This document shows positions 6,625-60,087 of a DNA stretch of 64,000 nucleotides, piece after piece. The stretch is from Rhodothermales bacterium (GTDB taxonomy: Bacteria; Bacteroidota; Rhodothermia; Rhodothermales; Bin80): assembly GCA_951812585.1 (NCBI GenBank), contig OX638318.1:2795978-2859977 (forward strand), in the 5' to 3' direction. Numbering within the stretch: the stretch's first letter is position 1; the number at the start of each line of letters is the position of its first letter. The notes beneath the pieces are model-generated. The model searched no databases. It had not been told where the DNA came from and saw nothing but the letters and a program-made list of their open reading frames with translations. Made by a program: the position numbers and the translations under genes.

Positions 6625-8091
6625 TCAGCGCATCAGATGATCCGCCACGCGAAGGGCTTGTGCCGCAATGGTAAGCGCAGGATTCATTGCGGCCGAGGAC
6701 GGGAAGAAGGACGCATCAACAACGTAAAGGTTGTCCACATCATGGCTGCGACACCAGGGATTCAGTACGCTGGTGGCTGGATCGTGGCCCATACGCAGTG
6801 TTCCGCACTGGTGCGAGTTGGTGGCGATTCCCATTGTTTCTACTAACGTGGTCGTGTAGCCTGCGCGCTGCATGATCAGTCTTGCTTCCCTTATGAACCG
6901 CTGATGCGTAGCCACGTTTGTCGGCTGCCAGTGTACGCGGATGCGTCCGCTGGAGCTCAAGGTGACACGATTGGATTCGATGGGCAAGTCCTCTGACATC
7001 ACCCACCAGTCCATGCTGCGCGCCGCCAGAGCTCTTAGAAACGGCAGCGGCACGCGCGGTCGCACGCTTTTCAGCATGGCGCCCTGGATCTTGCCTATGA
7101 TCTGCAGGTTTCCGAGCGGGTAAGGCCAGTCCGGTCCACGCAGGTAGTAGTCGTTGAGCGCCAGCGTCTTCTGGAACGTTGTGCGGTTGCGCTGACCAGC
7201 CTTGACGGCCATCAGGACCGTGTTGTTGTGCATCATATAGTTGCGACCCACCTGCCCGGAGCTGTTGGCAAGGCCGGAGCGCAATAGGAGCGCCGCGGAG
7301 TTTACTGCGCCGCAGGACACGACGAAGCGGTCGGCTTTTATCAGCTTGCACTCGTCGCGCCGTACAACTTCCACCGCTTCCACGCGCCGCCTCGCTGGGC
7401 CCGGCAAGAGGCGAACGGCCCGTGCACCGGTCAGCATCGAGACATCGGCACTCTCCAGGGCCGGCCGCACGCAACAGACATCCGCATCGCTTTTGGCCAG
7501 CACCTTGCACGGAAATCCGTCGCAGGTGTGGCAGCGGATGCAGCGTCCGCCCAGGTCAATGCCCATCGGCAGTGCAAAGGGTCGCAGGCCTTGTGCTGTC
7601 AGCGTGTCCGCTAGTGCGGCTACGCCGGGCTCGTGCGGGACAGCCGGCAGCGCGTACGCGCCTGATCGGGGCGGTTCAACAGGGTCGGCGCCAGCCTGCC
7701 CGCGTACGCGATACAACCGTTCGGCCTGCCCGTAGAAGGGTTCCAGTTCGGCATAGTGGATTGGCCAGGCCGGCGAGGTACCGCCTTCATGTTCTAGGGC
7801 CTCGAAGTCCTCCTTTCTGAAGCGGGGCAATGCTGCGCCGTAGACCTTCGTGTTGCCGCCGACGAAGTAGTGAACGCCTGGCGTGAAGCGTTGGCCGCGG
7901 CCGTCCTCCCAGTGCTCGTGCGGCTTGTAGCGACTTTGGCCGAAGACCGCGTCGGGTTTCCAGTTTTCGTCTTCTTGCGGCAGGAAGTCGCCCCGCTCAA
8001 TGAGGAGAACCTTGGCACCGCTATGGCGGAGGCCCCACGCGAGCGTGCCCCCTCCAGCGCCACTCCCAATGATGGCGATATCGGTGGTCAT
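6625..8091 (-). CDS. GMC family oxidoreductase
   Basis: IIGSGAGG FAD motif, VGGNTKVYGA, HQCGT and NPALTI. Confidence 0.9.
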   Translation of the reverse strand: MTTDIAIIGSGAGGGTLAWGLRHSGAKVLLIERGDFLPQEDENWKPDAVFGQSRYKPHEHWEDGRGQRFTPGVHYFVGGNTKVYGAALPRFRKEDFEALEHEGGTSPAWPIHYAELEPFYGQAERLYRVRGQAGADPVEPPRSGAYALPAVPHEPGVAALADTLTAQGLRPFALPMGIDLGGRCIRCHTCDGFPCKVLAKSDADVCCVRPALESADVSMLTGARAVRLLPGPARRRVEAVEVVRRDECKLIKADRFVVSCGAVNSAALLLRSGLANSSGQVGRNYMMHNNTVLMAVKAGQRNRTTFQKTLALNDYYLRGPDWPYPLGNLQIIGKIQGAMLKSVRPRVPLPFLRALAARSMDWWVMSEDLPIESNRVTLSSSGRIRVHWQPTNVATHQRFIREARLIMQRAGYTTTLVETMGIATNSHQCGTLRMGHDPATSVLNPWCRSHDVDNLYVVDASFFPSSAAMNPALTIAAQALRVADHLMR

Positions 8092-8897
8092 GCCTTGACT
8101 GCACCCGCGATCAGGCCGCGGACAAAAAGCCGACCGAGTCCCAGGTAGACCATTGCCGTGGGCAGTGCGGCCAAGACCGCGCCTGCCATCACCACATTCC
8201 AGTCCACAGAAAAGGAGCCCGACAGGTTATTGAGCGCGATGGTCACCGGCTGGGCTTGCGGGTTGGGCACCACGGTGATGCCAAAGAGGAAGTCGTTCCA
8301 GATGTTGGTGAACTGAAAGATCAGCGTTACGGCAAACGCAGGCAATGAAAGTGGCAGCATGATGCGCCAGAAAGCTTGCAGCATGCCGGCGCCATCCACA
8401 GTTGCCGCTTCTACGATAGCGCGTGGAATGGCTACATAGAAGTTGCGAAACAGCAGCGTGGTGACGGAGATGCCGTAGACTATGTGCGTGAGCACAAGGC
8501 CCGGGAGCGTACCGTACAGACCAATCCACTGCAGGAAACGCACCAGGGGCAGGAGGATGGCCTGGTATGGGATGAAGAACCCGAACAGGAGCAGCGCAAA
8601 GAGTACTTCAGAGCCACGAAAGCGCCACTTGGAGAACACGTACCCATTGAGTGCGCCGATGATCGATGAAATCACCGCGGCCGGGATCACCATCGCGAAG
8701 CTGTTGAGCAGGTTGGGGGAGAGCATCCGCCAGGCCTCGCCGAATCCCCCAAGGCCCACCGTGACCGGGAGCTTCCACATAGTGGACAGGCTGACGGTGT
8801 CTGCCGACTTCAGCCCGTTGGCCACCATCACATAGATGGGCAGCACATAAAAGAGCAGCGCGCAGAGCAAAAGGCTCCAGAGCAAGATCCGTCTCAT
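8088..8897 (-). CDS. Carbohydrate ABC transporter permease (glucose/mannose GtsC-like)
   Basis: Multiple TM segments, EAATVDGA loop, FQFTNIWNDFLFG. Confidence 0.9.
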   Translation of the reverse strand: MRRILLWSLLLCALLFYVLPIYVMVANGLKSADTVSLSTMWKLPVTVGLGGFGEAWRMLSPNLLNSFAMVIPAAVISSIIGALNGYVFSKWRFRGSEVLFALLLFGFFIPYQAILLPLVRFLQWIGLYGTLPGLVLTHIVYGISVTTLLFRNFYVAIPRAIVEAATVDGAGMLQAFWRIMLPLSLPAFAVTLIFQFTNIWNDFLFGITVVPNPQAQPVTIALNNLSGSFSVDWNVVMAGAVLAALPTAMVYLGLGRLFVRGLIAGAVKA

Positions 8898-8900
8898 GTG

Positions 8901-9896
8901 CTACTCTCCTTTGCGAACAAGCCGGATGAGGTAGGGCACAATGATCAGGCATGACAAGACGAGCATGACCATCGAAGCGGCGGCCCCCAGGTTGTATCGT
9001 GCTGCTTTGAACATCATTTCAAAGACAAAAATCGCCGGCACATCAGTCGCGAACCCAGGCCCGACGCCTGACATCGCAAAGACCAGGTCGAAGATCTTCA
9101 GTGATACATGCAGCAGAATGATCGCTGTTGCGATGGTGATAGGCCACAGCATCGGAATGATGATGGATCTGTAGAGCCTGAACTCGCTTGCACCATCGAT
9201 CCGCGCAGCGTCTCGCACGGCTTGTCCGATGCCGCTGAGGCCCCCTAGGTACATTGCCATCACAAAGCCGGAGAGCTGCCAGGTTGCAGCGATGGCGACT
9301 GGAATCAGCGCCACGGGCACACCCCATTCCACCTGAAAAGTATTGCCCCCAGGAATGACAGCCGCTAAGGCCTGATTGACCGACAGCACGACGGAAGGAT
9401 CAGTGGTCCAGCCTGGCGCCAGCGGGCCTATGCCGACCGTTGTCAGGACACGGTTGATGCCCAGGATCTCGAAGAACAGGTTGATGCCGGTCTCGGGGTT
9501 GAAGATCCAGCGCCAGACGACACCCGTCACGATGAAGGAAAGCGCGTACGGAAACAGGAACACGCTCCGAAAAAACCCGCGGCCTCGAATCGCGCGATCC
9601 AGGAGGATGGCAAGCGTAAGCCCCAGGCCGATGGAGAAGCCGATGAAGAGCACCGTGAAGACGAACGTGTTGCGCAAGTCAGCCTGAAAGCGCGGCATGC
9701 GAAGCATGTCTGCGTACGTTTGCCAGAGCGGCTCCCGCAGGCTGAGGTCAACGGCCAGTGTGCGCCAGTTCGTAAGAGAGAAGAAGAAGCTGGTGCCAAC
9801 AAACCCGTAGACAAAGATGCCTGTGAGCACCAGGGAAGGCAGCAGGAGGAGCAGACCCTGTTTGCGCGGTCCCAGCGTACGTCCGATCACCGGCAA
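8901..9896 (-). CDS. Carbohydrate ABC transporter permease (GtsB-like)
   Basis: TM segments, DAARIDGAS loop, KIFDLV. Confidence 0.9.
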   Translation of the reverse strand: MPVIGRTLGPRKQGLLLLLPSLVLTGIFVYGFVGTSFFFSLTNWRTLAVDLSLREPLWQTYADMLRMPRFQADLRNTFVFTVLFIGFSIGLGLTLAILLDRAIRGRGFFRSVFLFPYALSFIVTGVVWRWIFNPETGINLFFEILGINRVLTTVGIGPLAPGWTTDPSVVLSVNQALAAVIPGGNTFQVEWGVPVALIPVAIAATWQLSGFVMAMYLGGLSGIGQAVRDAARIDGASEFRLYRSIIIPMLWPITIATAIILLHVSLKIFDLVFAMSGVGPGFATDVPAIFVFEMMFKAARYNLGAAASMVMLVLSCLIIVPYLIRLVRKGE

Positions 9897-10333
9897 TGGT
9901 CTCTCACGCCTTGCCGCGCTTCATACCAGCTGCAGGGTACTTCTTTAGAGGCGAAAACACGGTCAATACGGTTCTGCTAAAGCCAACAGCGTCGCCCCTA
10001 GCCGTGCCGGGCGCACCTTAATCTAATGTGGTGCAACGTGGATTGCCAGCGACAGCGCAGCGCTGCTGCTGAATGCTCCAAAGAAGGCTGCAACATGTCC
10101 GTTCGCGTGATATCAACATAATGCCATTCAGCATACGCTATCCCAGTTGTGGCAGCACTTCTGCGGGTGGCGAGGTGTATGCTGGATTTACCCATGTGGC
10201 TGTTTGTCGCGGACTGAACCGTTTCTCTTCTTTCTATAGGCCTTCACCGGGGCTTCCGCTGCCTGCGCCGGTATTCTCCGGAGCTGCTCCACCAGTACCT
10301 CCTTGATTTTGCCTCCTTTATCGCCCCATGTGG

Positions 10334-11066
10334 TCATGTACCGCCATGCCATGTCATGATGCTACAGTACGATTTCGTAGACATCCTTTGCATGGATGTT
10401 GAGGGTACGTAGATACCGAACCTCCCTCGTATCGCTCTTTTCCCCACCACATCCCCCTTCGAGGCCTGCTGCGCAGCACCCGAATGTGCGATACCATTCG
10501 TACTTGGTTGAGCGGCACCACCGCCCACACTTCTGCCTCGTTCTGGTTGGTTTAAGATTGGTTCTATTGGTTCTACGCGCAGATTTTCAGGGGTTTTCTG
10601 CGCATTGGCTTTTGATTGTCAGCCGGATAACAGTACTCCCACGGATCAGCGTCAACGTCCACCTCATACAGATTCGACCGCGGCCGGTGGTCTATGACCG
10701 TGACTATTCCCAGCGCCTCCAGCCGCCACAGGATGCCCTGCACCGCCCGCCTCCCTAGGCGGCAATGTTCCACCAGCGTGGCTACGGTCGGCCAGCACTG
10801 GCCGTAGTTCGTAATCGCGGATCGTACCGTACGGACAGGGCCAAGTACATGACTACCCGCTGCATATTGCGCCACTCTTTCCCCTGTAGATCAGGGTGCG
10901 TTAACACCGCATCTGTCCACGCGCGCCGGGCACGGTGGCAGTCTACTTCAGGAGTGGACGGCTTTGTACGGTCGCCGGAATTGGTACGGGACGCACTTGC
11001 ACCTTTGCGCGCGGAATGGGTATCTTTGGTACGCATAAACGACGCTCCAGCAAGCCTACGAGGCAA
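10334..11066 (-). pseudogene. Frameshifted HTH-domain Rep-like gene, copy 1 (diverged variant)
   Basis: Overlapping frames 10782-11066 and 10573-10875 give RRAWTDAVLTHPDLQG...CWPTVATLVEHCRLGRRAVQGILWRLEALGIVTV, resembling the HTH_36-type N-terminus of phage/plasmid replication proteins. Confidence 0.55.
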
Positions 11067-11171
11067 CCACGTACGAGGACGCCAAAGAAGCAGCTGAACC
11101 CTGGTCGTATGGCCTCCATTTGTCGTTGGCTCACAAGGTCAATTTTCGTTCATCAGCATAAATGAAGCACA

Positions 11172-11669
11172 ATGCGTAAGTGGCAATTACTTTTTCTGAT
11201 CCTGGCCGTGGGGTGCGAAGGGCCTGTGGGGCCGCAAGGAGAGCAGGGACTACAAGGCGAACCGGGCCCACGCGGCCCCAGTGTCATAACCAAGACGGTC
11301 ACCTTTGCGAGTGCATCGTCCACTATCTACGACGTTGACTATGTTCGTGGTTCGTGGCGCGATTCGGACATCACACCAACCGTAATAGACGAGGGCACAA
11401 TCCTAGCCTTTGCCCGCACGCCCTTTAGTCAGGATTGGTATGCGCTGCCCATAAGGTCGGATGGGGACCACGTCTACTACTATTACACGATCGGATTTGT
11501 ATCCGTCGTCTCCAGAACGTTTGACGGGTATACCTACCCTGATCCCTATTTTGTTGACGATTACACCTTCAAGTACGTCATCATACTACCGGAGGAGACG
11601 CACCGGATGGATGATATCGATGTGACCAGCCATGAAGCCATAATGAACGCCTTGGGAGGTGCAATATGA
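11172..11669 (+). CDS. Collagen-like lipoprotein, copy 1
   Basis: Lipobox LAVGC followed by seven Gly-X-Y triplets (GPV GPQ GEQ GLQ GEP GPR GPS) and an aromatic-rich globular domain; 165 aa. Confidence 0.8.
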   Translation: MRKWQLLFLILAVGCEGPVGPQGEQGLQGEPGPRGPSVITKTVTFASASSTIYDVDYVRGSWRDSDITPTVIDEGTILAFARTPFSQDWYALPIRSDGDHVYYYYTIGFVSVVSRTFDGYTYPDPYFVDDYTFKYVIILPEETHRMDDIDVTSHEAIMNALGGAI

Positions 11670-11679
11670 ACACTTCATC

Positions 11680-11790
11680 ATGAGATTGCTTGCTGCATGT
11701 TTGTTTACAGTGTTACTGGCAAGTTGTGACACTGGCAGCAGGATTATGGTTCTGCAGACACCTTCAGAAATGCCCACAGGGCTGATTTAA
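11680..11790 (+). pseudogene. Short or truncated second lipoprotein, copy 1
   Basis: Hand translation MRLLAACLFTVLLASCDTGSRIMVLQTPSEMPTGLI* has lipobox LLASC and stops after 36 aa; repeated at 15459-15569. Confidence 0.45.
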
Positions 11791-12641
11791 GGCCCCCTCT
11801 CGCGCCGCTCCGCAGAAAAGTCATATCATCCACACTGCCCGCACGGAAGAGGAGGCGTGCATGGCCGCCCATAGTGGCGTTGGTTCCTTCTGCTATGGCT
11901 ACGTATGCGACCAATCTCCCACCGGCTTCGCGGCAGTCTGGCAACGGGGAAGGACAGACGTCGGCGTCCCGCATACGGCGCGACTTAAGCCGGCCCAAGC
12001 TTGAGCGCCGCTTTGAGCTGTCCCTCGAGGATCACCGGGGGCGGCGCCGGATCGCATCCGAAGCGTTTGGCGCTGGCCTGGGATCGCGGGCGTGGTGATG
12101 ATATGGGGCTGTAGGCAGGTCGAGAATCGTCGTAAGTCGGGTAAATACCCGATCGAGTGCCATTTACGGCGATTCTGACGTAAGAGCTGAAACGACGCCA
12201 TACGGCCCGTATGAGCCGCGTAGAGTTGTTCTGACGCGGGTTAAGTGAGGGACAGGGTTTTTAAAGAGGAACCGCGCCGTAAGCATGTCAGGGCAGCGCC
12301 TGGATAACGGCGCTCACGGCCGCCCGCTCAATAGGGATCCGGTACGCATCGTAGAGGCACCGCCAATCCCGATCCTCCCGAAAGCGCTCAGTGGCGCCCT
12401 GGTGCGCCACTGCCTGCTGTTCTCCGGAGAGGAGCACCAGACGCTCCTTATTGCGCGCACGCAGTGTTTCCGCCTTTGCCTCTTCCGCTTCCAACACCGC
12501 GGCATCCGCCGCTTTTCTTCTTTCTCCTGCTGGGCCTTCATCTGGGCTTCCGCTGCCGGTTCAGATTTTATAGTAGGACCGTCCCGGCTGGGCGAGCTAC
12601 TTTGGCTCGTTACCGCCACTCACCCAAACCGGAACGGTCTC

Positions 12642-13792
12642 ATGCAAAAACACACTCAACCCTCCACTTTCGCTTCGCCGTTGTTTGTCGGCATGGACAT
12701 GCACAAGAAGACGATTGCATTCTGTGTTTACGACGATGAGACGGGCGAGCTCATTGACGAGCGGCAATTGCCAAACGATTGGGCGAAGATCCGCAAGTAT
12801 ATTGACAACGTGCAGAAGCAGCATGGTGAACCCCAGTGTTGTTATGAGGCGTCGTCCTGCGGGTTCGTGTTGTATCGTGCGCTGCGGGCGCTGGGCGTGC
12901 ATTGTGATGTGATTGCTCCCTCGTCCATTCCGCGCCGTCCCGGCGATCGGGTCAAGACGGATCACCGGGATGCTAGAAAGCTGGCCACGCTGTATGCCGC
13001 CGGCCTGTTGACGCCGGTTACCGTGCCGGACGAGGAACGGGAAGCGATGCGGTCGCTGGTGCGTTGCCGGGCCGACTTGGTGGACGTGCTGACGCGGACC
13101 AAGCAGCGGGCCTTGTTTTTCGTACAGGCCCGCGGATACCGTTACTGCGGCGGCCGTCACTGGAGCTGCGCCTTCCGAAAGTGGATCACCACGCTGCCGT
13201 TGTCCGCGGTGGATCAGATCACGCTGCAAGCGTATCTGCACAAGATCACGTACCTGGAGCAGGAAGTACGTAGGCTAGAGGATCTTTTGGCGCAAGCGGC
13301 CCAAAAGGATCGCTACCGGGACACGGTCAACGTGCTGTCGGCCTTCCGGGGTATTGGACTCATGACTGCACTGACGCTGCTGTGCGAGCTCGGGGATATT
13401 CGGCGCTTTGCCCATCCGCGCCAGTTGATGGCATATTTGGGCTTGGTGCCCAGCGAGCATACTTCAGGGGATCGGGTTATGCGCGGCTCCATCACCAAGA
13501 CAGGCAACACGCATGCCCGCAAGGCCTTGGTGTCAACGGCGTGGAAGTATGCGACCGCTCCCCGATGCAGCGCGGCCTTGCGAGCGCGGCACAGGGCGTC
13601 TCCGCTGAAGTCATACGGATTGCCTGGAAAGCCCCGTGCCGGCTGCACAAGCGCTTCAGAAAGCTGATCCATTCCAAATCGCAGTGTGTGGCGAACGTAG
13701 CGGTGGCGCGTGAGTTGGCAGGCTTTCTATGGGAGGCAATGCAAGCACACGCCGGCACAGCGGTAGCGCAGGCCGCCTGGTTCGTACCTTAA
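12642..13792 (+). pseudogene. IS110-family DEDD transposase/recombinase with a single frameshift near 13591
   Basis: Motifs VGMDMHK, CYEASSCG, KTDHRDA and GLVPSEHTSG. The C-terminus (QGVSAEVIRIAWKA...VAVARELAGFLW) continues in another frame. Confidence 0.88.
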
Positions 13793-13824
13793 CCTTGCAA
13801 TGACTTATGGAGAAACGATCTGGC

Positions 13825-13985
13825 ACGGATGGAGAACCCACGAGCATGTCTTGCGATAGCCTGGCGTACTGCCGGCGAGCTCGCATTTTCAGATAGTGGC
13901 AGCTCCCGACGAATCCGAAATCATGCGTTACGGCCGACCTCGGCCCAGCACGCGAATGCCAGAGTGATTCACCGTCGAAGACGCC
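13825..13985 (+). ncRNA. Putative bridge RNA/seekRNA of the IS1111-type element
   Basis: Two stem-internal loop-stem modules. Loop 1 strands GAGCATGTCT (13842-13851) and TTCAG (13888-13892) match the target; loop 2 strands AAATC (13918-13922) and ATGCCAG (13956-13962) match the IS circle junction. RNA ends are approximate. Confidence 0.75.
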
Positions 13986-14059
13986 CGGTCGCTTCTTCAT
14001 AGGTCAAGACACAAATGCTTCATGTAATCTTAACTTGACATAGGGTCCTACTATGCCAG

Positions 14060-14845
14060 GTATGCTCCGGAGCCGCTCCACCAGTACCCCCTTGATTTTG
14101 CCTTCTTCATCTCCCCATGTGGTCATGCACCGCCATGCCATGTCACGGTGCACCCGTGCGATTGCGTAAACATCCTTTGCATGGATGTTGAGGGTACGGA
14201 GATACGAACCGCTCTCGTCTCTGTCGTGCCGTAGTACGCCGGCATGCTTGCGGCGTGCTGCGCAGCGCCCGAATGTGCGATACCATTCGTACTTGGTTGA
14301 GCGGCACCACCGCCCACACTTCTGCCTCGTTCTGGTTGGTTTAATCGTTGTTCTATCCTATGCGGCGTTTTCCCGGGGATTTTGCCGCGTAGAACTTTTG
14401 ACTCCCGGATGGCTCGCAGTACGTCCACGGGTCAGCACCAACAGGCAACGTGTACACATTCGATAGCGGCCGCCGGTCTGTGACCGTGAGGATTCCCAGT
14501 GATTCCAGCCGCCGCAGAATCCTCTGCATCGTCCGCCGATCGAATTTACAATGCTCCGCCAGTGCTGGGACAGTCGTGGCTGTAGTGGGATAAGCGCGGA
14601 TCGTAGCACATGGACATCGCAAGCTGAACAGCGACGCGGTGCATTCCGAGCTTGCGCGCACCCTGCAACTCAGGGTGAGCTAATGCCGCGTCTATCCAGG
14701 CGCGCCGGGCGCGGTGGCAGTCTACTTCAGGAGTGGACGGCTTTGTACGGTCGCCGGAATTGGTACGGGGCACACTTGCACCTTTGCGCGCGGAATGGGT
14801 ATCTTTGGTACGCATAAACGACGCTCCAGCAAGCCTACGAGGCAA
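14060..14845 (-). pseudogene. Frameshifted HTH-domain Rep-like gene, copy 2 (5' part; continues past the IS towards 12314)
   Basis: Frames give RRAWIDAALAHPELQG and TVPALAEHCKFDRRTMQRILRRLESLGILTV. The IS interrupts the ERLRSIP|E(P/Q)AAEAQMKA segment that is intact at 16682-17026. Confidence 0.55.
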
Positions 14846-14950
14846 CCATGTACGAGGACGCCAAAGAAGCAGCTGAACCCTGGTCGTATGGCCTCCATTT
14901 GTCGTTGGCTCACAAGGTCAATTTTCGTTCATCAGCATAAATGAAGCACA

Positions 14951-15448
14951 ATGCGTAAGTGGCAATTACTTTTTCTGATCCTGGCCGTGGGGTGCGAAGG
15001 GCCTGTGGGGCCGCAAGGAGAGCAGGGACTACAAGGCGAACCGGGCCCACGCGGCCCCGGTGTCATAACCAAGACGGTCACCTTTGCGAGTGCATCGTCC
15101 ACTATCTACGACGTTGACTATGTTCGTGGTTCGTGGCGCGATTCGGACATCACACCAACCGTAATAGACGAGGGCGCAATTCTAGTCTTTGTCCGCTTTC
15201 CTACTGGTCAGGATTGGTATGCGCTGCCCAGAACGTGGGATGGGCACCACGCCTACTACTATTACACGATCGGATTTGTATCCGTCGTCTTCAGAACGTT
15301 TGACGGGTATACCTACTCTGATCCCTATTTTGTTGACGATTACACCTTCAAGTACGTCATCATACCACCGGAGGAGACGCACCGGATGGATGATATCGAT
15401 GTGACCAGCCATGAAGCCATAATGAACGCCTTGGGAGGTGCAATATGA
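14951..15448 (+). CDS. Collagen-like lipoprotein, copy 2 (variant allele)
   Basis: Same 165-aa architecture as 11172-11669, with 15 amino-acid differences. Confidence 0.8.
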   Translation: MRKWQLLFLILAVGCEGPVGPQGEQGLQGEPGPRGPGVITKTVTFASASSTIYDVDYVRGSWRDSDITPTVIDEGAILVFVRFPTGQDWYALPRTWDGHHAYYYYTIGFVSVVFRTFDGYTYSDPYFVDDYTFKYVIIPPEETHRMDDIDVTSHEAIMNALGGAI

Positions 15449-16174
15449 ACACTTCATCATGAGATTGCTTGCTGCATGTTTGTTTACAGTGTTACTGGCA
15501 AGTTGTGACACTGGCAGCAGGATTATGGTTCTGCAGACACCTTCAGAAATGCCCACAGGGCTGATTTAAGGCCCCCTCTCGCGCCGCTCCGCAGAAAAGT
15601 CATATCATCCACACTGCCCGCACGGAAGAGGAGGCGTGCATGGCCGCCCATAGTGGCGTTGGTTCCTTCTGCTATGGCTACGTATGCGACCAATCTCCCA
15701 CCGGCTTCGCGGCAGTCTGGCAACGGGGAAGGACAGACGTCGGCGTCCCGCATACGGCGCGACTTAAGCCGGCCCAAGCTTGAGCGCCGCTTTGAGCTGT
15801 CCCTCGAGGATCACCGGGGGCGGCGCCGGATCGCATCCGAAGCGTTTGGCGCTGGCCTGGGATCGCGGGCGTGGTGATGATATGGGGCTGTAGACAGGTC
15901 GAGAATCGTCGTAAGTCGGGTAAATACCCGATCGAGTGCCATTTACGGCGATTCTGACGTAAGAGCTGAAACGACGCCATACGGCCCGTATGAGTCGCGT
16001 AGAATTGTTCTGACGCGGGTTAAGTGAGGGACAGGGTTTTTAAAGAGGAACCGCGCCGTAAGCATGTCAGGGCAGCGCCTGGATAACGGCGATCACGGCC
16101 GCGGCGGCCGCAATGAGGCCAAGACCTATACCGATGGTCCACTGGATGAGCTTGGCAGAGGCTTGGGCCACGAC

Positions 16175-16336
16175 CTAGAAAAAGACGATGTATGCCCCGC
16201 CAGCTGCCAGGATGGCGACGCCGATACCGATGAACCAAAACAGCAAGTTGAATTTGGCGTTTTGTGCCTCCAACTTGCTCTCGAAGCGATGGATAAGGTT
16301 GGTTGAGGCCATTTCTTCAACCAGTTTCGTGAGCAT
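16175..16336 (-). CDS. Small coiled-coil plus C-terminal TM protein, probably the 3' part of a frameshifted gene
   Basis: Hand translation MLTKLVEEMASTNLIHRFESKLEAQNAKFNLLFWFIGIGVAILAAGGAYIVFF*; below the ORF-track cutoff; deleted in copy 1. Confidence 0.5.
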   Translation of the reverse strand: MLTKLVEEMASTNLIHRFESKLEAQNAKFNLLFWFIGIGVAILAAGGAYIVFF

Positions 16337-16436
16337 CTCGGCCCTGAAGGCCGGCGCGGGTCAGAATGTCGTACAGCTGTGCCCGAGCGTCCGGCCGACG
16401 GGCAGGCGTTCCGGTTCGTTACCAGCCATAGCGGCT

Positions 16437-17326
16437 TTACGATGCGCACACCTGTACCGGTTCCACCTCAGGCCGGACAATGCCCGCCCATTTCGCGCCG
16501 GCGCTTCCGCCTGCTCCACATCGCCCCAATGGGTCCGTACAGGTCCATTGCCACCGGTGGATCGCCGTCCTGTGGGGGACGGGAAGCTCGTCCTTGTCCA
16601 GCGCGTCAAGCGCCTGCGTCAGGCACTTCTCCAGCCTCTTGGGTAAAAGCGCCCTCGGCAGCGCATCCCAATCTGCGGCGCTCACGGCCGCCCGCTCAAT
16701 AGGGATCCGGTACGTATCGTAGAGGCACTGCCAATCCCGATCCTCCCGAAAGCACTCAGTGGCGCCCTGGCGCGCCACTGTCTGCTGTTCTCCGGAGAGG
16801 AGCACCAGACGCTCTTTATTGCGCGCATGCAGCGCCTCCACCTTTGCCTCTTCCGCTTCCAACACCGCGGCATCCGCCGCTTTTCTTCTTTCTTCTGCCG
16901 GGCCTTCATCTGGGCTTCCGCTGCCTGTTCAGGTATGCTCCGGAGTCGCTCCACCAGTACCCCCTTGATTTTGCCTTCTTCATCTCCCCATGTGGTCATG
17001 CACCGCCATGCCATGTCACGGTGCACCCGTGCGATTGCGTAAACATCCTTTGCATGGATGTTGAGGGTACGGAGATACGAACCGCTCTCGTCTCTGTCGT
17101 GCCGTAGTACGCCGGCATGCTTGCGGCGTGCTGCGCAGCGCCCGAATGTGCGATACCATTCGTACTTGGTTGAGCGGCACCACCGCCCACACTTCTGCCT
17201 CGTTCTGGTTGGTTTAATCGTTGTTCTATCCTATGCGGCGTTTTCCCGGGGATTTTGCCGCGTAGAACTTTTGACTCCCGGATGGCTCGCAGTACGTCCA
17301 TGGGTCAACACCAACAGGCAACGTGT
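16437..17326 (-). pseudogene. 3' part of the Rep-like gene, running across the unit junction (several frames)
   Basis: Overlapping ORFs 16996-17301, 16682-17026 and 16437-16865 with coiled-coil-like EAEEAKVEALHARNKERL; homologous to 12288-12564. Confidence 0.45.
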
Positions 17327-17570
17327 TAAACTCGCTTTACAAGTCTTCGCGCTTTGACTTTTGCGGGCCAAGGGCTCCGCCCCTTGGAATCCCTCGCCGG
17401 CGGAAGCGCGGCGAGGGCGGGATTACTGCGACGGAATGAAACTCAACGCCACCAGTAGTGCAAACGCGAGGGAGCGCTCATGATGCGCATCGGCTTGGAT
17501 CTGAAAAGCCCAACGTAGTTGCGCGCCTCTAGTGGATGCGTGGATCGTGCTTTCAAAGACGAAACGTGTC

Positions 17571-18247
17571 CTAACGACTACCGTCGGGCATGCGGATGTT
17601 CTTCATGGCATCGCGAAGTTCCTCGAGTTTGTCCTTTGCGATATAGCGAACTCTTGCACGGTGACTTCCTGTCCTTCGTTAGGCGCTCGACTATAGGCGC
17701 GCCTTCCAAAGTCGATTCGGATAGCAGAGTACGTTGCCTTGTAAGGCCCCTTCCTACCCTCAATATGCACTTACTACCAGGATCAAGCCTGGCAGCCCGC
17801 CATACAGTGCTGGCCCTACTGGTACGGAATCTCTGGTGTGTACCAAGCCTCTAAAGCCAAAGTATCCTCAGATGCTGTGGCCTTTATTATCCGGTGTCCG
17901 AGAAACGTGCGCTCTTCTTCGGACAGCTTCCATTCAGGTACTTATAATTTGCCCGACACCAAAAACAGCCGATTCAAAAGCGTACGCTCCAACAGGTAAG
18001 TCCCCGCATCAAAGTCAAGCACGTGTCGCATGTAGCCCGACTGAACGGCGGCCAGCTTTTCGTATAGCGCTTCCATGCCCTCTACGTCCTTAAGTGCATC
18101 GGGAACCGCATGATCTATGGCTCCATGGTATTCATAGTATACGGTGCCATACTGCGCAGTGGCAGCAGCAAGAAGAAATGCGTGTGCAAGGACATACAGT
18201 CCTAAGCCTAGGATGTGATGCAGATTGCGCGAACGAACCACGCGCAT
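17571..18247 (-). pseudogene. GLPGLI-family protein (Bacteroidota) pseudogene
   Basis: Hand translation across frameshifts gives a signal peptide plus AQYGTVYYEY, then WKLSEEERTFLGHRIIKATA...EAWYTPEIP and VPVGPALYGGLPGLILVV. Confidence 0.75.
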
Positions 18248-18334
18248 GTCAGTTTTGGAGCTCAGGTGGCAGAAAACTGTACCTTCCGCACCTGCAGTAG
18301 GTAGGTACAGTTCGAACATCCAATGGGCGGAGAG

Positions 18335-18772
18335 TTACACCGTTTTTGCCTTTGCCAGGCAATACTCTTGGTATCTGTGGTAAGCAGACCAAGCCACAAC
18401 CCCAAACATGAGAATCGACCACGGTGGACTCCAAAAGATAACAGCGAGTCCGACCAAAAACGTACCTGAAATCCCTGCCATCCATAGGGCGGTTTGTGGG
18501 TGCCTACTGCGAACAATCTTGCGCTGCAGCTTTGCCTTTGCCAGGCGATACTCTTGGTATCTGTGGTAAACAGACCAAGCTACAACCCCAAACATGAGAA
18601 TCGACCACGGTGGACTCCAAAAGATAACAGCGAGCCCAACCAAAAACGTACCTGAAATCCCTACCACCCATAGGGCGGTTTGTGGGTGCCTACTGCGAAC
18701 AAACTTGCGCTTCAACGCGTAGGCCACAGCAAACCCTGCCACTAACAGGACCACAAAGAGTATAGAATCCAT
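18335..18772 (-). CDS. Small membrane protein with an internal 62-aa (186-bp) tandem duplication
   Basis: VRSRHPQTALW...WSPPWSILMFGVVAWSxYHRYQEYxLAKAK occurs twice. Confidence 0.65.
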   Translation of the reverse strand: MDSILFVVLLVAGFAVAYALKRKFVRSRHPQTALWVVGISGTFLVGLAVIFWSPPWSILMFGVVAWSVYHRYQEYRLAKAKLQRKIVRSRHPQTALWMAGISGTFLVGLAVIFWSPPWSILMFGVVAWSAYHRYQEYCLAKAKTV

Positions 18773-19105
18773 AACCTGGGATTATATTCGTTATGGTGCA
18801 AAATCCCACCTTACATGGTAAGGAAATGATAAGGCTTCTTGGCCAAAATATCAAGCATCATGCCCGTAATGCCACAGAAACGCGCTCTAAGTGCCCCGGT
18901 AGTCGCAGCTATCTGTTACCACTCCCGCATGGCGCATCGCGCTGTGTGGTTTTATGGCAATTCAAAACCCTGGTGAGCGACGCGGGCTAGTGGTCAGCGC
19001 AAACCGTGATTGCCCACCGCTCATGGTCATGGCAGTCGGTCAGCCGGAGCAGAGGAACGCGTGACTGGTATTACCGTCTATGCGCCGGTCGCTGCCCGGT
19101 GAACC

Positions 19106-20380
19106 CTAATCGCCAATGCCGGCCATGGCTGCTTCGCGCGCCAGGGTGCGCGCGAAAGCGTTCTCATCGCGACGCACAACAAAGGACGTAAGGGCATCGT
19201 TGAGCGCCTGCTGAAAGGCTGCCGGTGCGGCGGAGCCGTGGATAACAGTGGGCACCAATACGCCACTTGCATAGGTGTCCATGGCCCAGTTGAGGTAGGG
19301 GCCGAACCGCGTGCGGTCGCAGTCCGTGCGTGCACAAATCGCGCCCTTCTGCAGGTTAAAGTCCTCCTGCACCACGCGTTGTCCCATAATGCGCAGCATC
19401 TCCCGCGTCTCTTTGGGATTGGGCGCGCCACGGGCAAGCGTAAATCCATCAGATACGAGAAGATAGGTTCCCTCACTTCCCGGATGTGCGACCCACCCGA
19501 AGTCTACATCGTCCTCCAGATTGGCCTGCACGAACTCGCCGTAGACCCAGTCTCCCATGGAATACATCGCGCAGCTGCCCTGAATAAGCTTGTCCACCGC
19601 CTGATCCCAGGATAAGGCCGCGTGGTCCTTGTTGAGATAGTCCAGAAGCCGGGCGTAGGTGGCGATGGCCTGCCGCACATCGGCATCGGTAAACTGCGTG
19701 GAGCCATCCCAGAGCCCCAGGTAGCGTTCCGCGCCAATGACGCCCACAAGGGTATTCTCGAACATGATGCCCGTGGCCCAGATGCCAGAATCTCCCATGC
19801 AAAGGGGCGTTACCCCCTGGCGCTGCAGGTCGTCGGCGATGGCAAAGAGTGCCTCATGCGTGAGTGCGGTGCCGATCTCAATGCCGTGCTGTTGCAAGAG
19901 CGGCTTGTTATACCAGAGCGTGTTGCTGCGGTGCAGGTTGAGGATCACCAGGTAGGGTTCGCCCTGTGCACGCACCATGTTCAGGAGCGCGTCCGGAAAT
20001 ACCTCGAACCAACCTTCCTCTTCATAGAGGTCCGTAAGCGGTGCAGCAAAGCCGGGTGCGACGTACTGCTCCAGGACCTCCGTGCCGGGATGGGTTTGCC
20101 ATGTGTCCGGGGGATTGCCTCCAACGAGGCGTGTCTGAAGCACCGGGCGGGCGGCGGAGCCGCCGCCCCCAGCGATGGAAGCGTTGATGACAGCGGTTTC
20201 TGGGAAGGTCCGGCGATAAGCGGAAAAGACTGTTTCCAGCGCCGCGGCCTCGCTGCCGGAAGTCCACCACGAGAACACTTCCACGGTGCTCTCAGAGGAC
20301 TGGTTCTGGCTGCCTGCCCCGCAGGAAGCGACCACGAATGCTATGAGTGCCCAGAGCGGAGCCGCACAAGTGCTGTTCAT
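19106..20380 (-). CDS. Sugar ABC transporter substrate-binding lipoprotein (glucose/mannose GtsA-like)
   Basis: Lipobox VVASC; motifs VEVFSWWTSGSEAAAL, GNPPDTWQ, HRSNTLWYN and MGDW. Confidence 0.9.
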   Translation of the reverse strand: MNSTCAAPLWALIAFVVASCGAGSQNQSSESTVEVFSWWTSGSEAAALETVFSAYRRTFPETAVINASIAGGGGSAARPVLQTRLVGGNPPDTWQTHPGTEVLEQYVAPGFAAPLTDLYEEEGWFEVFPDALLNMVRAQGEPYLVILNLHRSNTLWYNKPLLQQHGIEIGTALTHEALFAIADDLQRQGVTPLCMGDSGIWATGIMFENTLVGVIGAERYLGLWDGSTQFTDADVRQAIATYARLLDYLNKDHAALSWDQAVDKLIQGSCAMYSMGDWVYGEFVQANLEDDVDFGWVAHPGSEGTYLLVSDGFTLARGAPNPKETREMLRIMGQRVVQEDFNLQKGAICARTDCDRTRFGPYLNWAMDTYASGVLVPTVIHGSAAPAAFQQALNDALTSFVVRRDENAFARTLAREAAMAGIGD

Positions 20381-20394
20381 AGAATTGCCGAAGG

Positions 20395-21867
20395 CTATAG
20401 CCATGAAGACCGCGTGGGGCCCAGATGAAGCTGGACCGTCTTGAGTTCAGTGAATTCGTCCACGGAGAACCGGCCCAGTTCCCGTCCCAGACCGCTGTCC
20501 CGATATCCGCCGAAGGGGAGCTCCGGATAGCCGTCCATGAAGCAGTTGATCCAAATCGTGCCCGCGCGCACCGCGCGGCTGACCTCGAAGGCTGTACCTA
20601 CATCCCGTGTCCACACGCCTGCGCTCAGGCCGTACAACGTGTCGTTGGCAAGCTGAACAGCTTCGTCGACCGTGTCAAACGGTATCACCGACAACACGGG
20701 GCCGAAGATTTCATCGCGTGCAACCGCCATGTCAGGCGCCACATCGCCGAGCACTGTGGCTTCAAAAAAGCGCCCGCTTGCAGTGCTTATGGGCTGACCG
20801 CCAAGCAGCAGATTTGCGCCATCCTTAAGGCCTGATGCTACGTATCGCTCAATCTTGTCGAGGTGTGCCTGGCTGATTATCGCGCCCACCTTGGTAGATG
20901 TCTCCAGCGGATCGCCGATGCGGATTGTGCGCGCCAGCGCCACGATCTGTTCAGTAAACGTGTCTGCGATGCTCCGCTGTACCAGTAATCGGCTGCCGCT
21001 GTTGCAGCACTCCCCCATGTTGAAGTACACGCCGAACACCACGGCATCGAGCGCCGCGTCCAGATCGGCATCTGCAAAAACGATGTGCGGGTTTTTGCCG
21101 CCAAGCTCCAAAGAAACCCTTTTCAAGTTCGCCCCCGCGCGCGCGGCTACGATCCGCCCTACGCGCGTAGAGCCGGTGAAGGACAGCGCATCCACATCCG
21201 CGTGTTCGGCTATGGCCTGACCCACCGGTGTTCCAAAGCCCGTAACGACATTGACCACGCCCGGAGGCACGCCCGCTTCATGCAGGATGGTGCTGAGCGC
21301 CAGCGTGGTGCCCGGGGTGAGTTCGCTCGGTTTGATCACGGCCGTGCAGCCCGCCGCCAGTGCAAACGGCAGCTTCTGACTGATGACGAGGAGTGGAAAA
21401 TTCCACGGCGTAATCATGCCCACCACGCCTGTCGGCTCGCGCAGCACCATGCCGAGCTTATCTCGGCCTAGCGTGTTGTACGTGTCGCCGCGCGTATGGC
21501 GGCAGAGCGTGCTGGCGTACTCCCAGAGGTCTACTGCAGCGGCTATTTCGCCATAGGCCTGCGTGATGGGTTTGCCGCTTTCCATCACCTCCAGGCGGGC
21601 CAGCGATGCTTTGTCGGCCCTTATGCGCTGCGCAACATCATGCAGGAGGCGGGCCCGCCGCCTGCCAGGAAGCATCGCCCAGTCTCCCTGATCGAACGCG
21701 GCGCGCGCCGCTGCGACCGCGGCGTCCACATCGGCAGCCTGCCCGCGCACGTAGGTGGCCACCGGGCTGTCGTGCGCCGGGCTGACGGTTGTAAAGCACT
21801 TCGCGTCCTGTGCGCCTATCTGGCGCCCCCCGATCCACATGCGCTGCACTCCGGTCGTATACGGCAT
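20395..21867 (-). CDS. Aldehyde dehydrogenase (betaine-aldehyde/sorbosone dehydrogenase-like)
   Basis: Motifs ITPWNFP, FTGSTRVG, LELGGKNP, catalytic Cys in GECCNSG, and EIFGPV. Confidence 0.92.
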   Translation of the reverse strand: MPYTTGVQRMWIGGRQIGAQDAKCFTTVSPAHDSPVATYVRGQAADVDAAVAAARAAFDQGDWAMLPGRRRARLLHDVAQRIRADKASLARLEVMESGKPITQAYGEIAAAVDLWEYASTLCRHTRGDTYNTLGRDKLGMVLREPTGVVGMITPWNFPLLVISQKLPFALAAGCTAVIKPSELTPGTTLALSTILHEAGVPPGVVNVVTGFGTPVGQAIAEHADVDALSFTGSTRVGRIVAARAGANLKRVSLELGGKNPHIVFADADLDAALDAVVFGVYFNMGECCNSGSRLLVQRSIADTFTEQIVALARTIRIGDPLETSTKVGAIISQAHLDKIERYVASGLKDGANLLLGGQPISTASGRFFEATVLGDVAPDMAVARDEIFGPVLSVIPFDTVDEAVQLANDTLYGLSAGVWTRDVGTAFEVSRAVRAGTIWINCFMDGYPELPFGGYRDSGLGRELGRFSVDEFTELKTVQLHLGPTRSSWL

Positions 21868-30897: not shown

Positions 30898-31271
30898 TGG
30901 TGGAGATGCCGGGAATCGAACCCGGGTCCGCATGGACATGCCAGTCAGATATCTACGTGTGTAGGCCATCCATTAGGGCTTACCCCTGCCGCGCCTGCCG
31001 ATGACCAAGGCTGGGGCAAAGGCACAGGCTGATCAGTAGCCATCACCCTTCATACAGCCGGAATGAAGGGTACGGCGCTCATCATTGACGATGCCTCCTG
31101 ATGCGCCGATGAGCAGGCACACACAGGAGACAGATGGGGCGTTTATGCCGCCATCGCGTACGAGTAGTCGTTCGCAGTTCTGTGATTCCTGGCCTGATTT
31201 ACGAGAAGTGCCAGGCGAACTCGACACGCCATCTGCTGCACGAAACCATCCGTCGAAGCCGTGTCATCCCC
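30898..31271 (-). ncRNA. ssrA: tmRNA
   Basis: 5' end GGGGATGACACGGCTTCGACGG; 3' tRNA-like GACCCGGGTTCGATTCCCGGCATCTCCACCA; tag reading frame ANDYSYAMAA* at about 31143-31175. Confidence 0.95.
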
Positions 31272-54163: not shown

Positions 54164-55542
54164 ACTGTGCTTTTATCGTGCCGGGTTCAATGGTTTAGGG
54201 TGCCCGTTGTTTCGTGCATCAGGCGGGCGAGCCAGGCGCGGCTCCGTTTGTGATTGCCGCATCCCCACAGTCCGTCATGGCTAGGCCTCCCAAGTAGTCA
54301 TAAATCAGACTTACACAATGGCCTTCATAACGTTTGGCTTGCCGTTATGGAGGCGCAGCATCAGATCTTGCGTACGCTTCGGACCTCGGAGCCGGCCTTA
54401 CTGGCAACACTGGGCGCGCTAAGGTGACAATCACCTCAAATCACGGCGAAAACCTGGCTTTCAGGGCCATTTGTGCCCAAATCGGCCCAAAAACGACTAA
54501 AAAAGGTGTCAAAATGGGCCTACTGACTGCGCCGCGAGGGTGAGGCTGCGCCCGACTACTATGAAGTTCAGATTAGAATCGCCGCCTTGATCATCATACG
54601 TAAATTCCATTACAACAAAAGCCCCATGGGCTTGGCCTCGCTTAGGATCGCCGATCCTGCGAGCAAGATGGAAGCGGGGCGTACTGCCAAGGGGCGAATA
54701 CCCAGCAATACCGCGAATCCACAGACAGGTCCGACCCCCTGCCCCGAGCATGTCCCGGCACATGGCGTCTATGACAGCCTGCGCCGTCGGGTGTTTCCTG
54801 TCTATGTTGGGCGCACGTGCAGAGGAGTTCAGGTCTGAGGAGGAGATTGCTCAGACGTATCAGTTCTCCCGGACAACAAAGTTCTCGCGTGCTGCGCACA
54901 GGTACATTATCATTCTGGGACTAATCTTTGTAGGGTTATGGCGTGTGGTGCAGGTTGGCAATCCCACAGCATGCAGGCCCACGCTAGGTGACCGAGACCA
55001 AGTCGGAGGGACGAAATGCGTCGGAATACGCCCTAGATCACATCTTTACGTGGCCAACCAACTGCTGAGAGAGCCGTTTGCGCTGCGTGCAAACACGGAC
55101 TATGGGTTTCAGGGTAGGGTCCACTTTTTTCAACAGCGCTTGATTAAGGGGCATTGTATTGCTTAACATTACAGGCCAGCGTGGTCGTACCGATCTATCC
55201 AGCAGAATAACCGGCAGGTTTACAATTGGCTTTTACGTTGTTGGTGTAGGACTTCTTCTCCTCGCGGGGAAGGCTTGGTACGGTGCGACGAAAAGTGCCG
55301 CTGCGAGGTGTGCGGGGAGTTTTGCGGTTGCAGCGACGACGAGTAGCGTACAATGGAGGGTTATCTCTTCCGGTCGGCCCTAACTGGGGTCACGCCCGTT
55401 GCGGTCAAGTGGCTGAGTCGGTCCGTTATCTTCTTAAGTCGTTGATCTGGAGTAACCGCTGCATTGTGCCCGGCTGCAGTGCTGGCTTTTTCGCGGCTGG
55501 TATCTGATGCCGCTCTTCGGTCCACAAAGATATACATGTATA

Positions 55543-55971
55543 GACGAAACGGACGGAACCGGACGACTCACCGTGCACCGATCCAAGACCGACCAGGAAG
55601 GCGCCGGCGCCGTGCTCTACCTCGGCGCGCCCACTATGCAGCGCGTGCAGGCCTGGCTTACCCGTGCAGGCATTGGTGCTGGACCCGTGTTCCGATCGGT
55701 CCGCAAGGCCGGCAGCGCTATCGGCCCCCGACTCACCGCCCGTAGCGTATCGCGCATCATCCAGCGTGTCGCCGAGCCGCTGAGTATCACCGGGCGCGTC
55801 AGCTCACACTCGTTCCGGGTGGGCTCTGCGCAGTCGCTCGTTAAACGCGGCGCCACACTCACAGAGACACAACTCGCAGGCCGGTGGAAGTCACCACGCA
55901 TGCCCGCCCACTATGCCCGCGGCCAGCTCGCAGGACGCGGCGCCATGGCCCGGTTGCGCTACGGAGCGTAA
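55543..55971 (+). pseudogene. Tyrosine recombinase (Cre-like integrase) C-terminal fragment
   Basis: RSKTDQEG, HSFRVGSAQSL and AGRWKS..MPAHYAR (catalytic K, HxxR, W, Y); the N-terminal domain and first catalytic Arg are missing. Confidence 0.85.
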
Positions 55972-56226
55972 ATCCGCGTCAGGACGCGCATAGACGCACT
56001 GTGCTGCCGCTGTGCACACAACATGGGCTAGTAGCTATCACCCACGTACAGAACGCACACAGCGCCTTGTCAGGGCTATTATGCGCGCAGCGGGAATCTA
56101 GGCGCTCTATGCGCCCGCATTTGGTCTGATCTGAAATTCAGAAAATGGTCTGGGCTGTTGTATATTGGCTTATCGTGCCGAGGCCGGATACAAGGGCCGC
56201 GGTCTCCATTAACTCACACACCTAGC

Positions 56227-56532
56227 ATGTCATGTAAACGTATTCTACTTATCTCGATGGCAATAGCGTCACTCAGCCTACCAAAGCGGTTGTTTCTCAT
56301 CGGCATCCTTGCCGTGCTGGGGTACTTTGCTGGCGCGATGCTCAACCCAGTTGTATCGTTTGCCGATGAATCGCATTGCGACAACAACGTGTGCGAAAGG
56401 CTCAACCCTGGCCACCCAGATCATTTCTGCCTGCCTGGAAAGGTAGAAATGGAGCAAAATTGCACGGCCTACAAGACGAGCAATCCAGAGGATGGTCCTC
56501 ATTATCATTGCAAGATCGATTATGACTGTTAG
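56227..56532 (+). CDS. Secreted cysteine-rich small protein (six Cys in the mature part)
   Basis: Hydrophobic leader ending VVSFA; mature DESHCDNNVC...CKIDYDC. The start may be 56227 or 56257. Confidence 0.65.
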   Translation: MSCKRILLISMAIASLSLPKRLFLIGILAVLGYFAGAMLNPVVSFADESHCDNNVCERLNPGHPDHFCLPGKVEMEQNCTAYKTSNPEDGPHYHCKIDYDC

Positions 56533-59807: not shown

Positions 59808-60087
59808 GTTTGACATTATCGGAAATCATTTAGGTCCCGAAACACGGACATGAACGAGGGGCAGGACACCCTGCACGCCGCCTGACATCACCGCGCATAA
59901 ACAAGGGTGGAACCTGCCTCAGAATCGCCGCAAATGGCGCTCGATTACATTCAGGTACGGTCAGGGGCGATTCCGGAGACCTTTTCCTGATTACCTGGCG
60001 GAAACTGGAGCCGTCGGTGCACGCTTTAGGCGGCAATAACAAGTGGGTGTTCATGGCTGGGTTGGGTTAGTGACCGGGGATGTTCAA

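Follow-up and report, generated by a model that had tools for sequence, protein, structure and literature searches.

A broken head-to-tail array in a Rhodothermales chromosome, probably a relic of small plasmid-like replicons

Repeat units and initiator-like genes of the array

We analysed a window of 64,000 nucleotides from a Rhodothermales bacterium (positions 2,795,978–2,859,977 of one 3.198-Mb contig; coordinates below are window positions unless marked as genome positions). A block at 9.9–19.1 kb of this window, flanked by an ATP-binding cassette (ABC) permease gene (8901–9896, minus) and a solute-binding-protein gene (19106–20404, minus), holds a head-to-tail array of a small unit with an initiator-like gene, a gene for a small membrane protein (tm53) and a gene for a collagen-like lipoprotein (Table 1). 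A first-pass annotation of the same DNA had described it as a 2873-bp element, possibly a cryptic plasmid or satellite, that amplifies in tandem. We derived the repeat anatomy from a BLAST self-comparison of 9–19 kb together with a repeat finder. The self-comparison aligned 14057–14453 with 16930–17326 (99.2% identity over 397 bp, offset 2873), 10270–12323 with 14059–16102 (90.3% over 2065 columns), 12308–12564 with 16676–16932 (94.6%) and 10219–10567 with 16877–17229 (83.4%), and the repeat finder returned spacings of 3789 and 2873. A segment of ~450 bp occurs three times, its copies separated by two segments of ~2.4 kb. The repeat is genuine and far above chance.

The annotated 2873-bp period is therefore real, but it is confined to unit B compared with partial unit C. 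Unit A lies at an offset of 3789 bp because a 1492-bp IS110-family insertion sequence (IS) sits exactly at the junction between A and B, and it also lacks 589 bp of the full unit, a loss bounded by two 15-nt near-identical direct repeats. Units A and B are ~90% identical overall and mosaic along their length: identity is 98–100% over 10967–12307 (14746–16087 in unit B), with one 85% patch, and 64–87% over 10270–10966, falling to 64–77% over most of 14159–14746 in unit B. Since the two units are only 64–77% identical in the DNA-binding half of the initiator-like gene, they carry two initiator types and do not reflect fresh amplification. Aligned to intact proteins, the N-terminus of unit A resembles the type of homologue P0004 and that of unit B the type of P0002. 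Two initiator types on near-identical lipoprotein modules would indicate either two related elements or gene conversion.

All three copies of the initiator-like gene are broken. We read them by tblastn against P0002–P0006, intact metagenome homologues of 449–455 amino acids, which had been reached through an intact 264-amino-acid open reading frame (ORF) in the relative G013 (L011:9821–10615). The high-scoring segment pairs of Rep_A fall in frames −3/−2/−1/−3 (three frame changes) and include one in-frame stop; its helix-turn-helix domain HTH_36 (PF13730) reaches 26.7 bits (cutoff 25). The N-terminal part of Rep_B passes through frames −1/−2/−1/−3 (HTH_36, 27.9 bits), and overall Rep_B shows at least four frame changes, is split by the IS and has lost its C-terminus to the 589-bp deletion. 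Rep_C reads in frames −3/−2/−1/−3, with a 'PQDGDPP...' segment in yet another frame and several frameshifts in all. Frameshifts also split the HTH_36 domain in the window, such that only profile positions 22–55 lie in one ORF. An intact initiator is found neither among these copies nor elsewhere in the genome.

The frameshift near amino acids 75–84 is net −1 in Rep_A (~10812–10815) and net +1 in Rep_B (14564–14598), and these opposite shifts point to independent lesions. We rejected programmed frameshifting, as A would need −1 and B +1, and as each intact homologue is encoded by one uninterrupted ORF. In three independent studies of sponge metagenomes (runs X1, X2 and X3), whose contigs we aligned to 9500–19500, both sites are covered gap-free (10526/10550–10962 in X2/X3; 14520–14769 in X1). 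Because the same lesions recur there, they are not assembly errors of this genome at those sites; this independent cover is limited to amino acids 75–84, with the lesions in the linker, at amino acids ~225–235 and at amino acid ~301 lying outside it.

The IS matches the Pfam families DEDD_Tnp_IS110 and Transposase_20 (E 1.7e-22 and 2.2e-21) and the NCBIfam equivalog NF033542 (230 bits, cutoff 140). In these domains, the equivalog match and its sub-terminal inverted repeats it agrees with the IS110 (IS1111-like) RNA-guided insertion sequences; here it does not belong to the unit but has disrupted it as a secondary passenger. It is inserted cleanly in the Rep_B coding sequence, between GTTCAG and GTATGC; the equivalent site at 16929/16930 has no insertion. 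The genome has one full copy of the IS. Its transposase frame looks shifted near the C-terminus: the C-terminal motif VAVARELAGFLW lies in a different frame (ORF 13382–13792) from the main ORF, whereas it is in frame in the intact G013 relative. An extra base is present at 13347 in X1 and X2 contigs and at 13590 in X2, while X3 agrees with the window.

The annotation had a minus-strand gene cross the unit junction, from 14845 to 14060 and on from 16932 to 16437. Homology to the intact proteins bears this out, along the path 14815 to 14058 and 16929 to 16440. As a sign of a circle, which is how the crossing had been taken, it is a weak argument alone, since the point at which one unit of a tandem array is taken to begin is always arbitrary. 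Both ends of the array lie inside the initiator gene, at amino acid ~300 on the left and ~121 on the right, with two full periods between them, and the gene order at the ends is circularly permuted, a pattern looked for as a mark of an integrated multimer of a circular replicon. Ends at two different initiator positions require an ancestral head-to-tail array of three or more initiator genes. This could have come from an integrated multimer or co-integrate of plasmids, or a single integrated copy could have multiplied by unequal crossing-over and then lost its ends by deletion; a gene that crosses the junction suits either course. Inspection of the boundary sequences revealed no target duplication or terminal repeat.

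Table 1. Features of the array (aa, amino acids; positions in the window).
Feature	Position	Strand	Size	Description
Unit A	10219–12564		2346 bp	Diverged copy; lacks 589 bp equivalent to 16088–16676 of unit B
Unit B	14057–16929		2873 bp	Sole full-length unit
Partial unit C	16930–17326		397 bp	99.2% identical to 14057–14453
Rep_A pseudogene	10200–11036	minus		P0004 aa 1–~300; type-2-like N-terminus; truncated by left array end
Rep_B N-terminal part	14058–14815	minus		aa 1–283; frameshifted; stops at the IS
Rep_B C-terminal remnant	12309–12562	minus		aa ~284–375; frameshifted; cut by the 589-bp deletion
Rep_C	16440–17336	minus		N-terminally cut at aa ~121 by right array end; reaches natural C-terminus
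IS110-family element	12565–14056	plus	1492 bp	11-bp sub-terminal inverted repeats ATAGTAGGACC
Collagen-like lipoprotein, copy A	11172–11669	plus	165 aa	Intact
Collagen-like lipoprotein, copy B	14951–15448	plus	165 aa	Intact; 91% identical to copy A
tm53	16175–16336	minus	53 aa	Membrane protein: helical N-terminus, one C-terminal transmembrane segment
R module	15734–16024			Non-coding; between convergent lipoprotein and initiator/tm53 genes

The initiator-like family, its relatives and its distribution

The intact homologues P0002–P0006 carry HTH_36 near the N-terminus (26.4–58.5 bits). P0004 matched nine PHROG families at E ≤ 1e-3, and all nine are replication-initiation or primosomal families aligned over the winged helix; the best was phrog_391, 'replication initiation O-like' (E 3.1e-10, profile positions 20–94 of 298). 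The initiator pieces of the window show the same picture more weakly. These matches agree with the annotated view of a unit built like a tiny replicon. We infer from the sequence matches that an intact protein of this family probably initiates replication.

An AlphaFold (AF2) model of P0004, built from 17 sequences with a mean predicted local distance difference test score (pLDDT) of 65, places a confident winged helix at 33–136, a disordered linker at 142–230 and an all-helical C-terminal domain at 231–410. Structure searches with this model returned generic winged-helix proteins only (Foldseek best E 0.014; VIA Z at most 8.6) and barely tested the C-terminal domain. In the ESM Atlas, the C-terminal half fell in unnamed clusters (0.89–0.90), and the nearest named ones (0.81–0.84), below the trust level and a lead only, are plasmid Rep C-terminal domains.

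In its winged helix (PF13730 above cutoff; PHROG 391 and eight other initiator PHROGs) and, as modelled, in having two domains joined by a flexible linker, the family resembles the lambda O-type initiators. The lambda origin iterons lie inside the O gene, and the intact relatives here likewise carry a perfect tandem repeat within the linker coding region, two copies of 11–12 amino acids whose sequence differs between the two N-terminal types. By likeness to lambda O, these repeats, known at the protein level only and in two copies, could be origin iterons. The C-terminal domain is unlike that of O: no PHROG or Pfam match extends past the winged helix, and a PDB profile search gave nothing relevant. 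The window copies also differ in lacking linker or direct repeats and a helicase-loader partner gene.

A second likeness runs through the non-coding R module. This module is 86% identical to sequence directly 3′ of a Rep_3 gene (Rep3_N plus Rep3_C) in G013 (L045:9068–9276), and a copy in the genome under study lies beside a Rep_3 C-terminal remnant (genome ~1425.4–1426.0 kb). Two unrelated initiator genes on one backbone module amount to a plasmid-like trait. The iteron-bearing theta plasmids of the Rep_3 type (PF01051/PF21205) are also small units of one initiator plus cargo. The initiator here differs from theirs: Pfam found no Rep3_N or Rep3_C domain in P0004, P0002, P0013 or P0007, the protein shows no likeness to the G013 Rep_3 protein (hhalign probability 0.8%), and we found no iterons.

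The G013 locus L045 (G013:C1:3174000–3192000) holds a Rep_3-type initiator gene at 7582–9072, behind which come the R-module homologue and two genes for secreted proteins. To either side are 2.87-kb direct repeats, 99.6% identical, with IS110-family relatives (65% identical to the window IS) and other IS genes in them, and the arrangement looks like an IS-bracketed plasmid relic.

The initiator-like family is small and mostly fragmentary. Among 1.84 billion representatives there were 47 matches at E ≤ 1e-3, about 20 of them family-specific and three near full length; some short members may be contig-end fragments rather than pseudogenes. Further copies exist as fragments at four other loci of the genome, including ~270.1–270.6, 896.3–896.7 and 1093.2–1094.6 kb (genome positions), with smaller pieces elsewhere. 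With unit B as the DNA query, we found matches in 7 of 24 genomes of the same family, in none of 16 genomes each representing another family of the order, and in none of the contigs of the same-genus draft G001 (95% complete, 210 contigs). A protein profile matched in 10 of 201 genomes of the order, and outside G000 and G006 only query positions 6–192 were covered. The unit occurs in eight public runs from five studies, of which the organism-labelled ones are sponge metagenomes, and a metagenome scan for family loci returned only the locus of the same species. In G013, an initiator fragment and beta-propeller lipoprotein genes are adjoined by a long tandem-repeat coding region for a Cys-rich secreted repeat protein (L011, 6846–7752).

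Copy number, junctions and origin of the array

We compared depths across the array in the three studies, taking means of assembled contigs from public runs, which do not include raw reads and give no true copy numbers. Depth was 82–86 in the flank, 81–88 in copy-specific pieces and 135–161 in shared pieces in X2; the corresponding values were 24–29, 32–33 and ~54 in X3, and 8–9, 7.8–15.4 and 15.8 in X1. Copy-specific pieces thus lie at ~1x flank depth (up to ~2x in X1) and shared pieces at ~2x, with no large excess as expected of a multicopy circle. Run X6, at a depth of ~2, leaves 9500–11800 without cover.

These depths bear on whether the element is still live, as a mini-replicon or satellite excising or amplifying in the form of a 2873-bp circle. 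Such a circle would suit the 99% identity of units B and C over their common 397 bp, and also the ~2x depth of the shared parts, although two chromosomal copies explain this equally well. The lack of an intact initiator in the array or genome, the lack of a recombinase, the absence of a large depth excess in all three studies and the recovery of the same A, IS and B pieces in runs dated from 2016 to 2025 make it very improbable, and neither the free circle nor the satellite of the first-pass annotation is borne out; the latter would call for satellite or phage genes, of which there are none. Its present-day tandem amplification likewise does not sit with three broken initiators and with units A and B at 64–77% identity in the DNA-binding half.

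Contigs of X1, X2 and X3 reproduce the A-specific, B-specific and IS pieces at 99–100% identity. Contigs of 23 kb span the left junction in X2 and X3, and JGI contig L016 (75 kb), which ends inside the element, carries it too; the right junction is crossed by contigs covering 17271–18425 in X1, X2 and X3, the B/C junction together with the right end by X6 record 27, and the A/IS junction by contigs covering 12496–13972. Repeats are error-prone in assembly, and the window comes from a single-contig assembly of a metagenomic organism, in which a small plasmid or collapsed repeat could have been wrongly placed in the chromosome. With these junctions crossed by independent contigs, an artefact of this kind is hardly credible. 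Units A and B, moreover, differ by ~10%, a 589-bp deletion and the IS, and are therefore not copies of one molecule. A joint in X2 from 10579 to 14369 (shorter side 30 letters, 3 between) was not used: a one-unit recombinant might explain it, and so might a k-mer path linking similar copies.

Over 9.9–19.1 kb, Pfam (14 ORFs), PHROGs and NCBIfam searches returned no integrase, relaxase, capsid, recombinase or phage gene, and in this, as in the lack of terminal repeats, we agree with the annotation. The integrase, attachment-site (att) direct repeats and phage-interaction genes by which a site-specific element or phage satellite would be recognised are likewise missing from this interval. The array might instead be what is left of the replication module of some larger mobile element, either a prophage or an integrative element whose initiator resembled lambda O, and its short period would then be due to local duplication. 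The best family matches are indeed phage O-like PHROGs, tblastn against phage records hit O-like genes of Pseudomonas phages (11–16% of the query, over the winged helix), and related fragments in relatives adjoin tyrosine-recombinase fragments and IS elements. However, the interval holds no phage structural, lysis or recombinase gene, only the initiator, tm53 and lipoprotein lie between successive initiator genes of the head-to-tail unit, and IMG/VR, with the protein patterns used, gave nothing beyond a 37-residue winged-helix match. We judge a larger element improbable.

With every initiator copy broken and no recombinase present, a fixed relic is the best reading of the array. We consider it probable that the block is a dead, chromosomally fixed, head-to-tail relic of small plasmid-like replicons, and we infer that the ancestor was a free circle. 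The array shares head-to-tail units, an initiator across the nominal junction and truncated outer copies with integrated plasmid multimers and tandem amplified units. It departs from them in having two initiator types, in lacking an att site, integrase and target duplication, and in being decayed and stable across samples. In the history that we propose, an ancestral unit of ~2.9 kb would have carried three genes, for an initiator-like protein of ~450 amino acids, a small tail-anchored membrane protein and, convergent to these, a collagen-like lipoprotein. In the initiator-like protein, a winged helix (HTH_36) like those of lambda O and plasmid Rep proteins would have been joined by a disordered linker to a C-terminal domain that is all-helical and peculiar to the family. 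Three or more units, each with an initiator gene, would have come to lie in tandem, as an integrated multimer or co-integrate or through unequal crossing-over, and both outer units would then have been truncated within the initiator gene. The initiator genes would have gathered frameshifts, the IS110 element would have landed in one of them, and a 589-bp slippage deletion would have removed the end of that initiator and the adjacent tm53 gene.

Several findings weigh against a plasmid-like origin. Likeness to known initiators is confined to the winged helix, for which structure searches returned generic proteins, and sequence searches of Pfam, NCBIfam and the PDB gave no match for the C-terminal domain. 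The units in the window contain no iterons, AT-rich stretch or convincing DnaA box. No related protein turned up in 72,556 plasmid records, and IMG/VR added nothing past the short winged-helix match. Two units so strongly unlike in the DNA-binding half are not accounted for by a simple multimer of a single circle, and the depths, being those of contigs, are not copy numbers. The intact homologues are encoded on contigs of 5–33 kb rather than on 3-kb circles, and two intact types apparently share one 26,427-bp contig, as judged from equal size only; such sharing could mean a stable chromosomal arrangement with another role.

These points would suit a chromosomal gene-family array that was never a replicon, in which the gene for a winged-helix regulator or nucleoid-type protein would be paired with a lipoprotein gene; the array would have arisen through segmental tandem duplication and gene conversion and would now be decaying. 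HTH_36 is a DNA-binding domain only, no origin feature, integrase or mobilisation gene was found, gene conversion is evident from 98–100% identity over 14746–16087 beside 64–77% elsewhere, and the permease/solute-binding-protein gap is variable in relatives too. On the other side stand the phage-family matches of the winged helix, all of them to replication initiators; the patchy, decay-prone distribution, with fragments at several loci, matches in 7 of 24 family genomes and none in G001; a GC content of 0.58 in the unit against 0.615–0.63 in the flanks; and the R module common to Rep_3 plasmid initiator genes. A selfish element fits these observations better than a housekeeping regulator, and we hold the gene-family array to be possible but unlikely.

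The relic of plasmid-like replicons could also belong to something wider: an undescribed family of ~3-kb mini-replicons in sponge-associated Rhodothermales, joining a lambda-O-like winged helix and an origin in its own linker to a novel helical domain. Such replicons would swap initiator modules (HTH_36-type or Rep_3-type) on an R-module backbone and ferry patch-diversifying surface lipoproteins, and chromosomal arrays would be their graveyards, or reservoirs of lipoprotein variants exchanged by gene conversion. This is speculative and, taken as a whole, rather doubtful. The parts of the literature available to us held nothing on pRM21, a Rhodothermus plasmid of 2.9 kb, and nothing specific on mobile elements of sponge-symbiont Rhodothermales.

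If the relic reading is true, the locus bears witness to plasmids that once moved through a lineage of sponge symbionts and points to a very small, uncharacterised initiator family and a potential replicon for Rhodothermales genetics. As the element is dead, the locus itself chiefly illustrates how a genome decays, through IS insertion, slippage deletion and frameshifts within a variable chromosomal gap. Only the two intact lipoprotein genes, patchily different from each other, possibly still matter to the cell, and they may still serve the host.

Cargo genes and chromosomal surroundings

The annotated collagen-like lipoprotein and small transmembrane protein are both present; the lipoprotein stub that accompanied them in the annotation was not identified. 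The lipoprotein has a lipobox-like LAVGC, about seven G-X-Y triplets (GPVGPQGEQGLQGEPGPRGP) and a beta-rich C-terminal head, with Pfam Collagen (PF01391) at 15.2–17.5 bits, below the gathering score of 27.2. Between the two copies 15 residues differ, and the changes are concentrated at 15176–15252 within otherwise identical DNA, in line with the variable surface protein that the annotation had proposed. A Nei–Gojobori count gave 17.5 non-synonymous against 2.5 synonymous changes (omega ~2.2; small numbers). We rejected mutagenesis of the diversity-generating-retroelement type, as the substitutions are not adenine-specific and no reverse transcriptase was found. By sequence search the family is very small, with four proteins, two further variants differing in the same patches; a distant paralogue stands in a housekeeping context. 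The Scl/BclA-type collagen-like surface proteins are alike in a short G-X-Y run before a globular beta-rich head, a lipobox-like signal and variation clustered in the head. The lipoprotein here is set apart by its few triplets, its sub-threshold Collagen match, its family of four and a head model of low confidence (pLDDT 50.7), too poor for a fold search.

tm53 gave tblastn matches in 9 of the 10 relatives' loci searched, at 38–73% identity, and in related genomes its family is multi-copy, with recombinase or IS genes as frequent neighbours. The tm53-like proteins of L007, L005 and other loci share a conserved EEMASANLIHRFESKLE followed by a transmembrane segment. Some of their genes stand in tandem with variable heptad-like inserts, and some adjoin a tyrosine recombinase (G007) or IS/TnpB genes (G003).

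Long hairpins, also annotated, were not seen: inverted repeats were limited to two of 15 nt, none of the 90-nt DNA folds stood out, and there was one imperfect stem of ~20 bp at ~15898–15953 (z −2.7). The ~60-bp sequence of this stem recurs at 82–90% identity in many places in G002, G006, G007 and G013, and given this wide recurrence it may itself be a repeat resembling repetitive extragenic palindromes or miniature inverted-repeat transposable elements. An RNA element or tRNA attachment site was rejected, as Rfam (E ≤ 1, 9500–19500) gave three sub-threshold matches and no tRNA lies near the array. A promoter and terminator scan gave nothing above shuffles.

The array lies in the gap that separates the permease genes of an ABC sugar transporter from the gene for its solute-binding protein. 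This gap contains a gene for a 1077-amino-acid secreted protein in G006 and different genes in G013; since its contents differ among relatives, the gap is a variable spot rather than a tight operon that simply took up an insertion. On the right side of the array, 17327–19105 has 53% GC and contains two ORFs, a truncated gene of GLPGLI-like type and one for a small membrane protein. The former (17942–18319, minus), an ORF of 125 amino acids that we take to belong to the GLPGLI family, resembles a truncated N-terminal part of a ~270-amino-acid protein whose full-length paralogues, at genome positions 1593550–1594365, 1594513–1595346 and 902450–903265, contain a 'GLPGLILV' motif. The membrane ORF (18335–18772, minus; 145 amino acids) includes a 186-bp tandem duplication at 18345–18714 (2.0 copies, 95% identical) that doubles a two-helix module, with no family match.

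A second island at 54750–63845 contains a 154-amino-acid Phage_integrase fragment (55507–55971) and at least two paralogues of the DUF5128 six-bladed beta-propeller (57921–59120 and 62332–63492), with a GC dip to 0.53 at 56–58 kb. Genes of the same kinds adjoin initiator fragments in G013 (L011). The window also holds a transfer-messenger RNA gene at 30898–31271 (minus) with the tag peptide ANDYSYAMAA.

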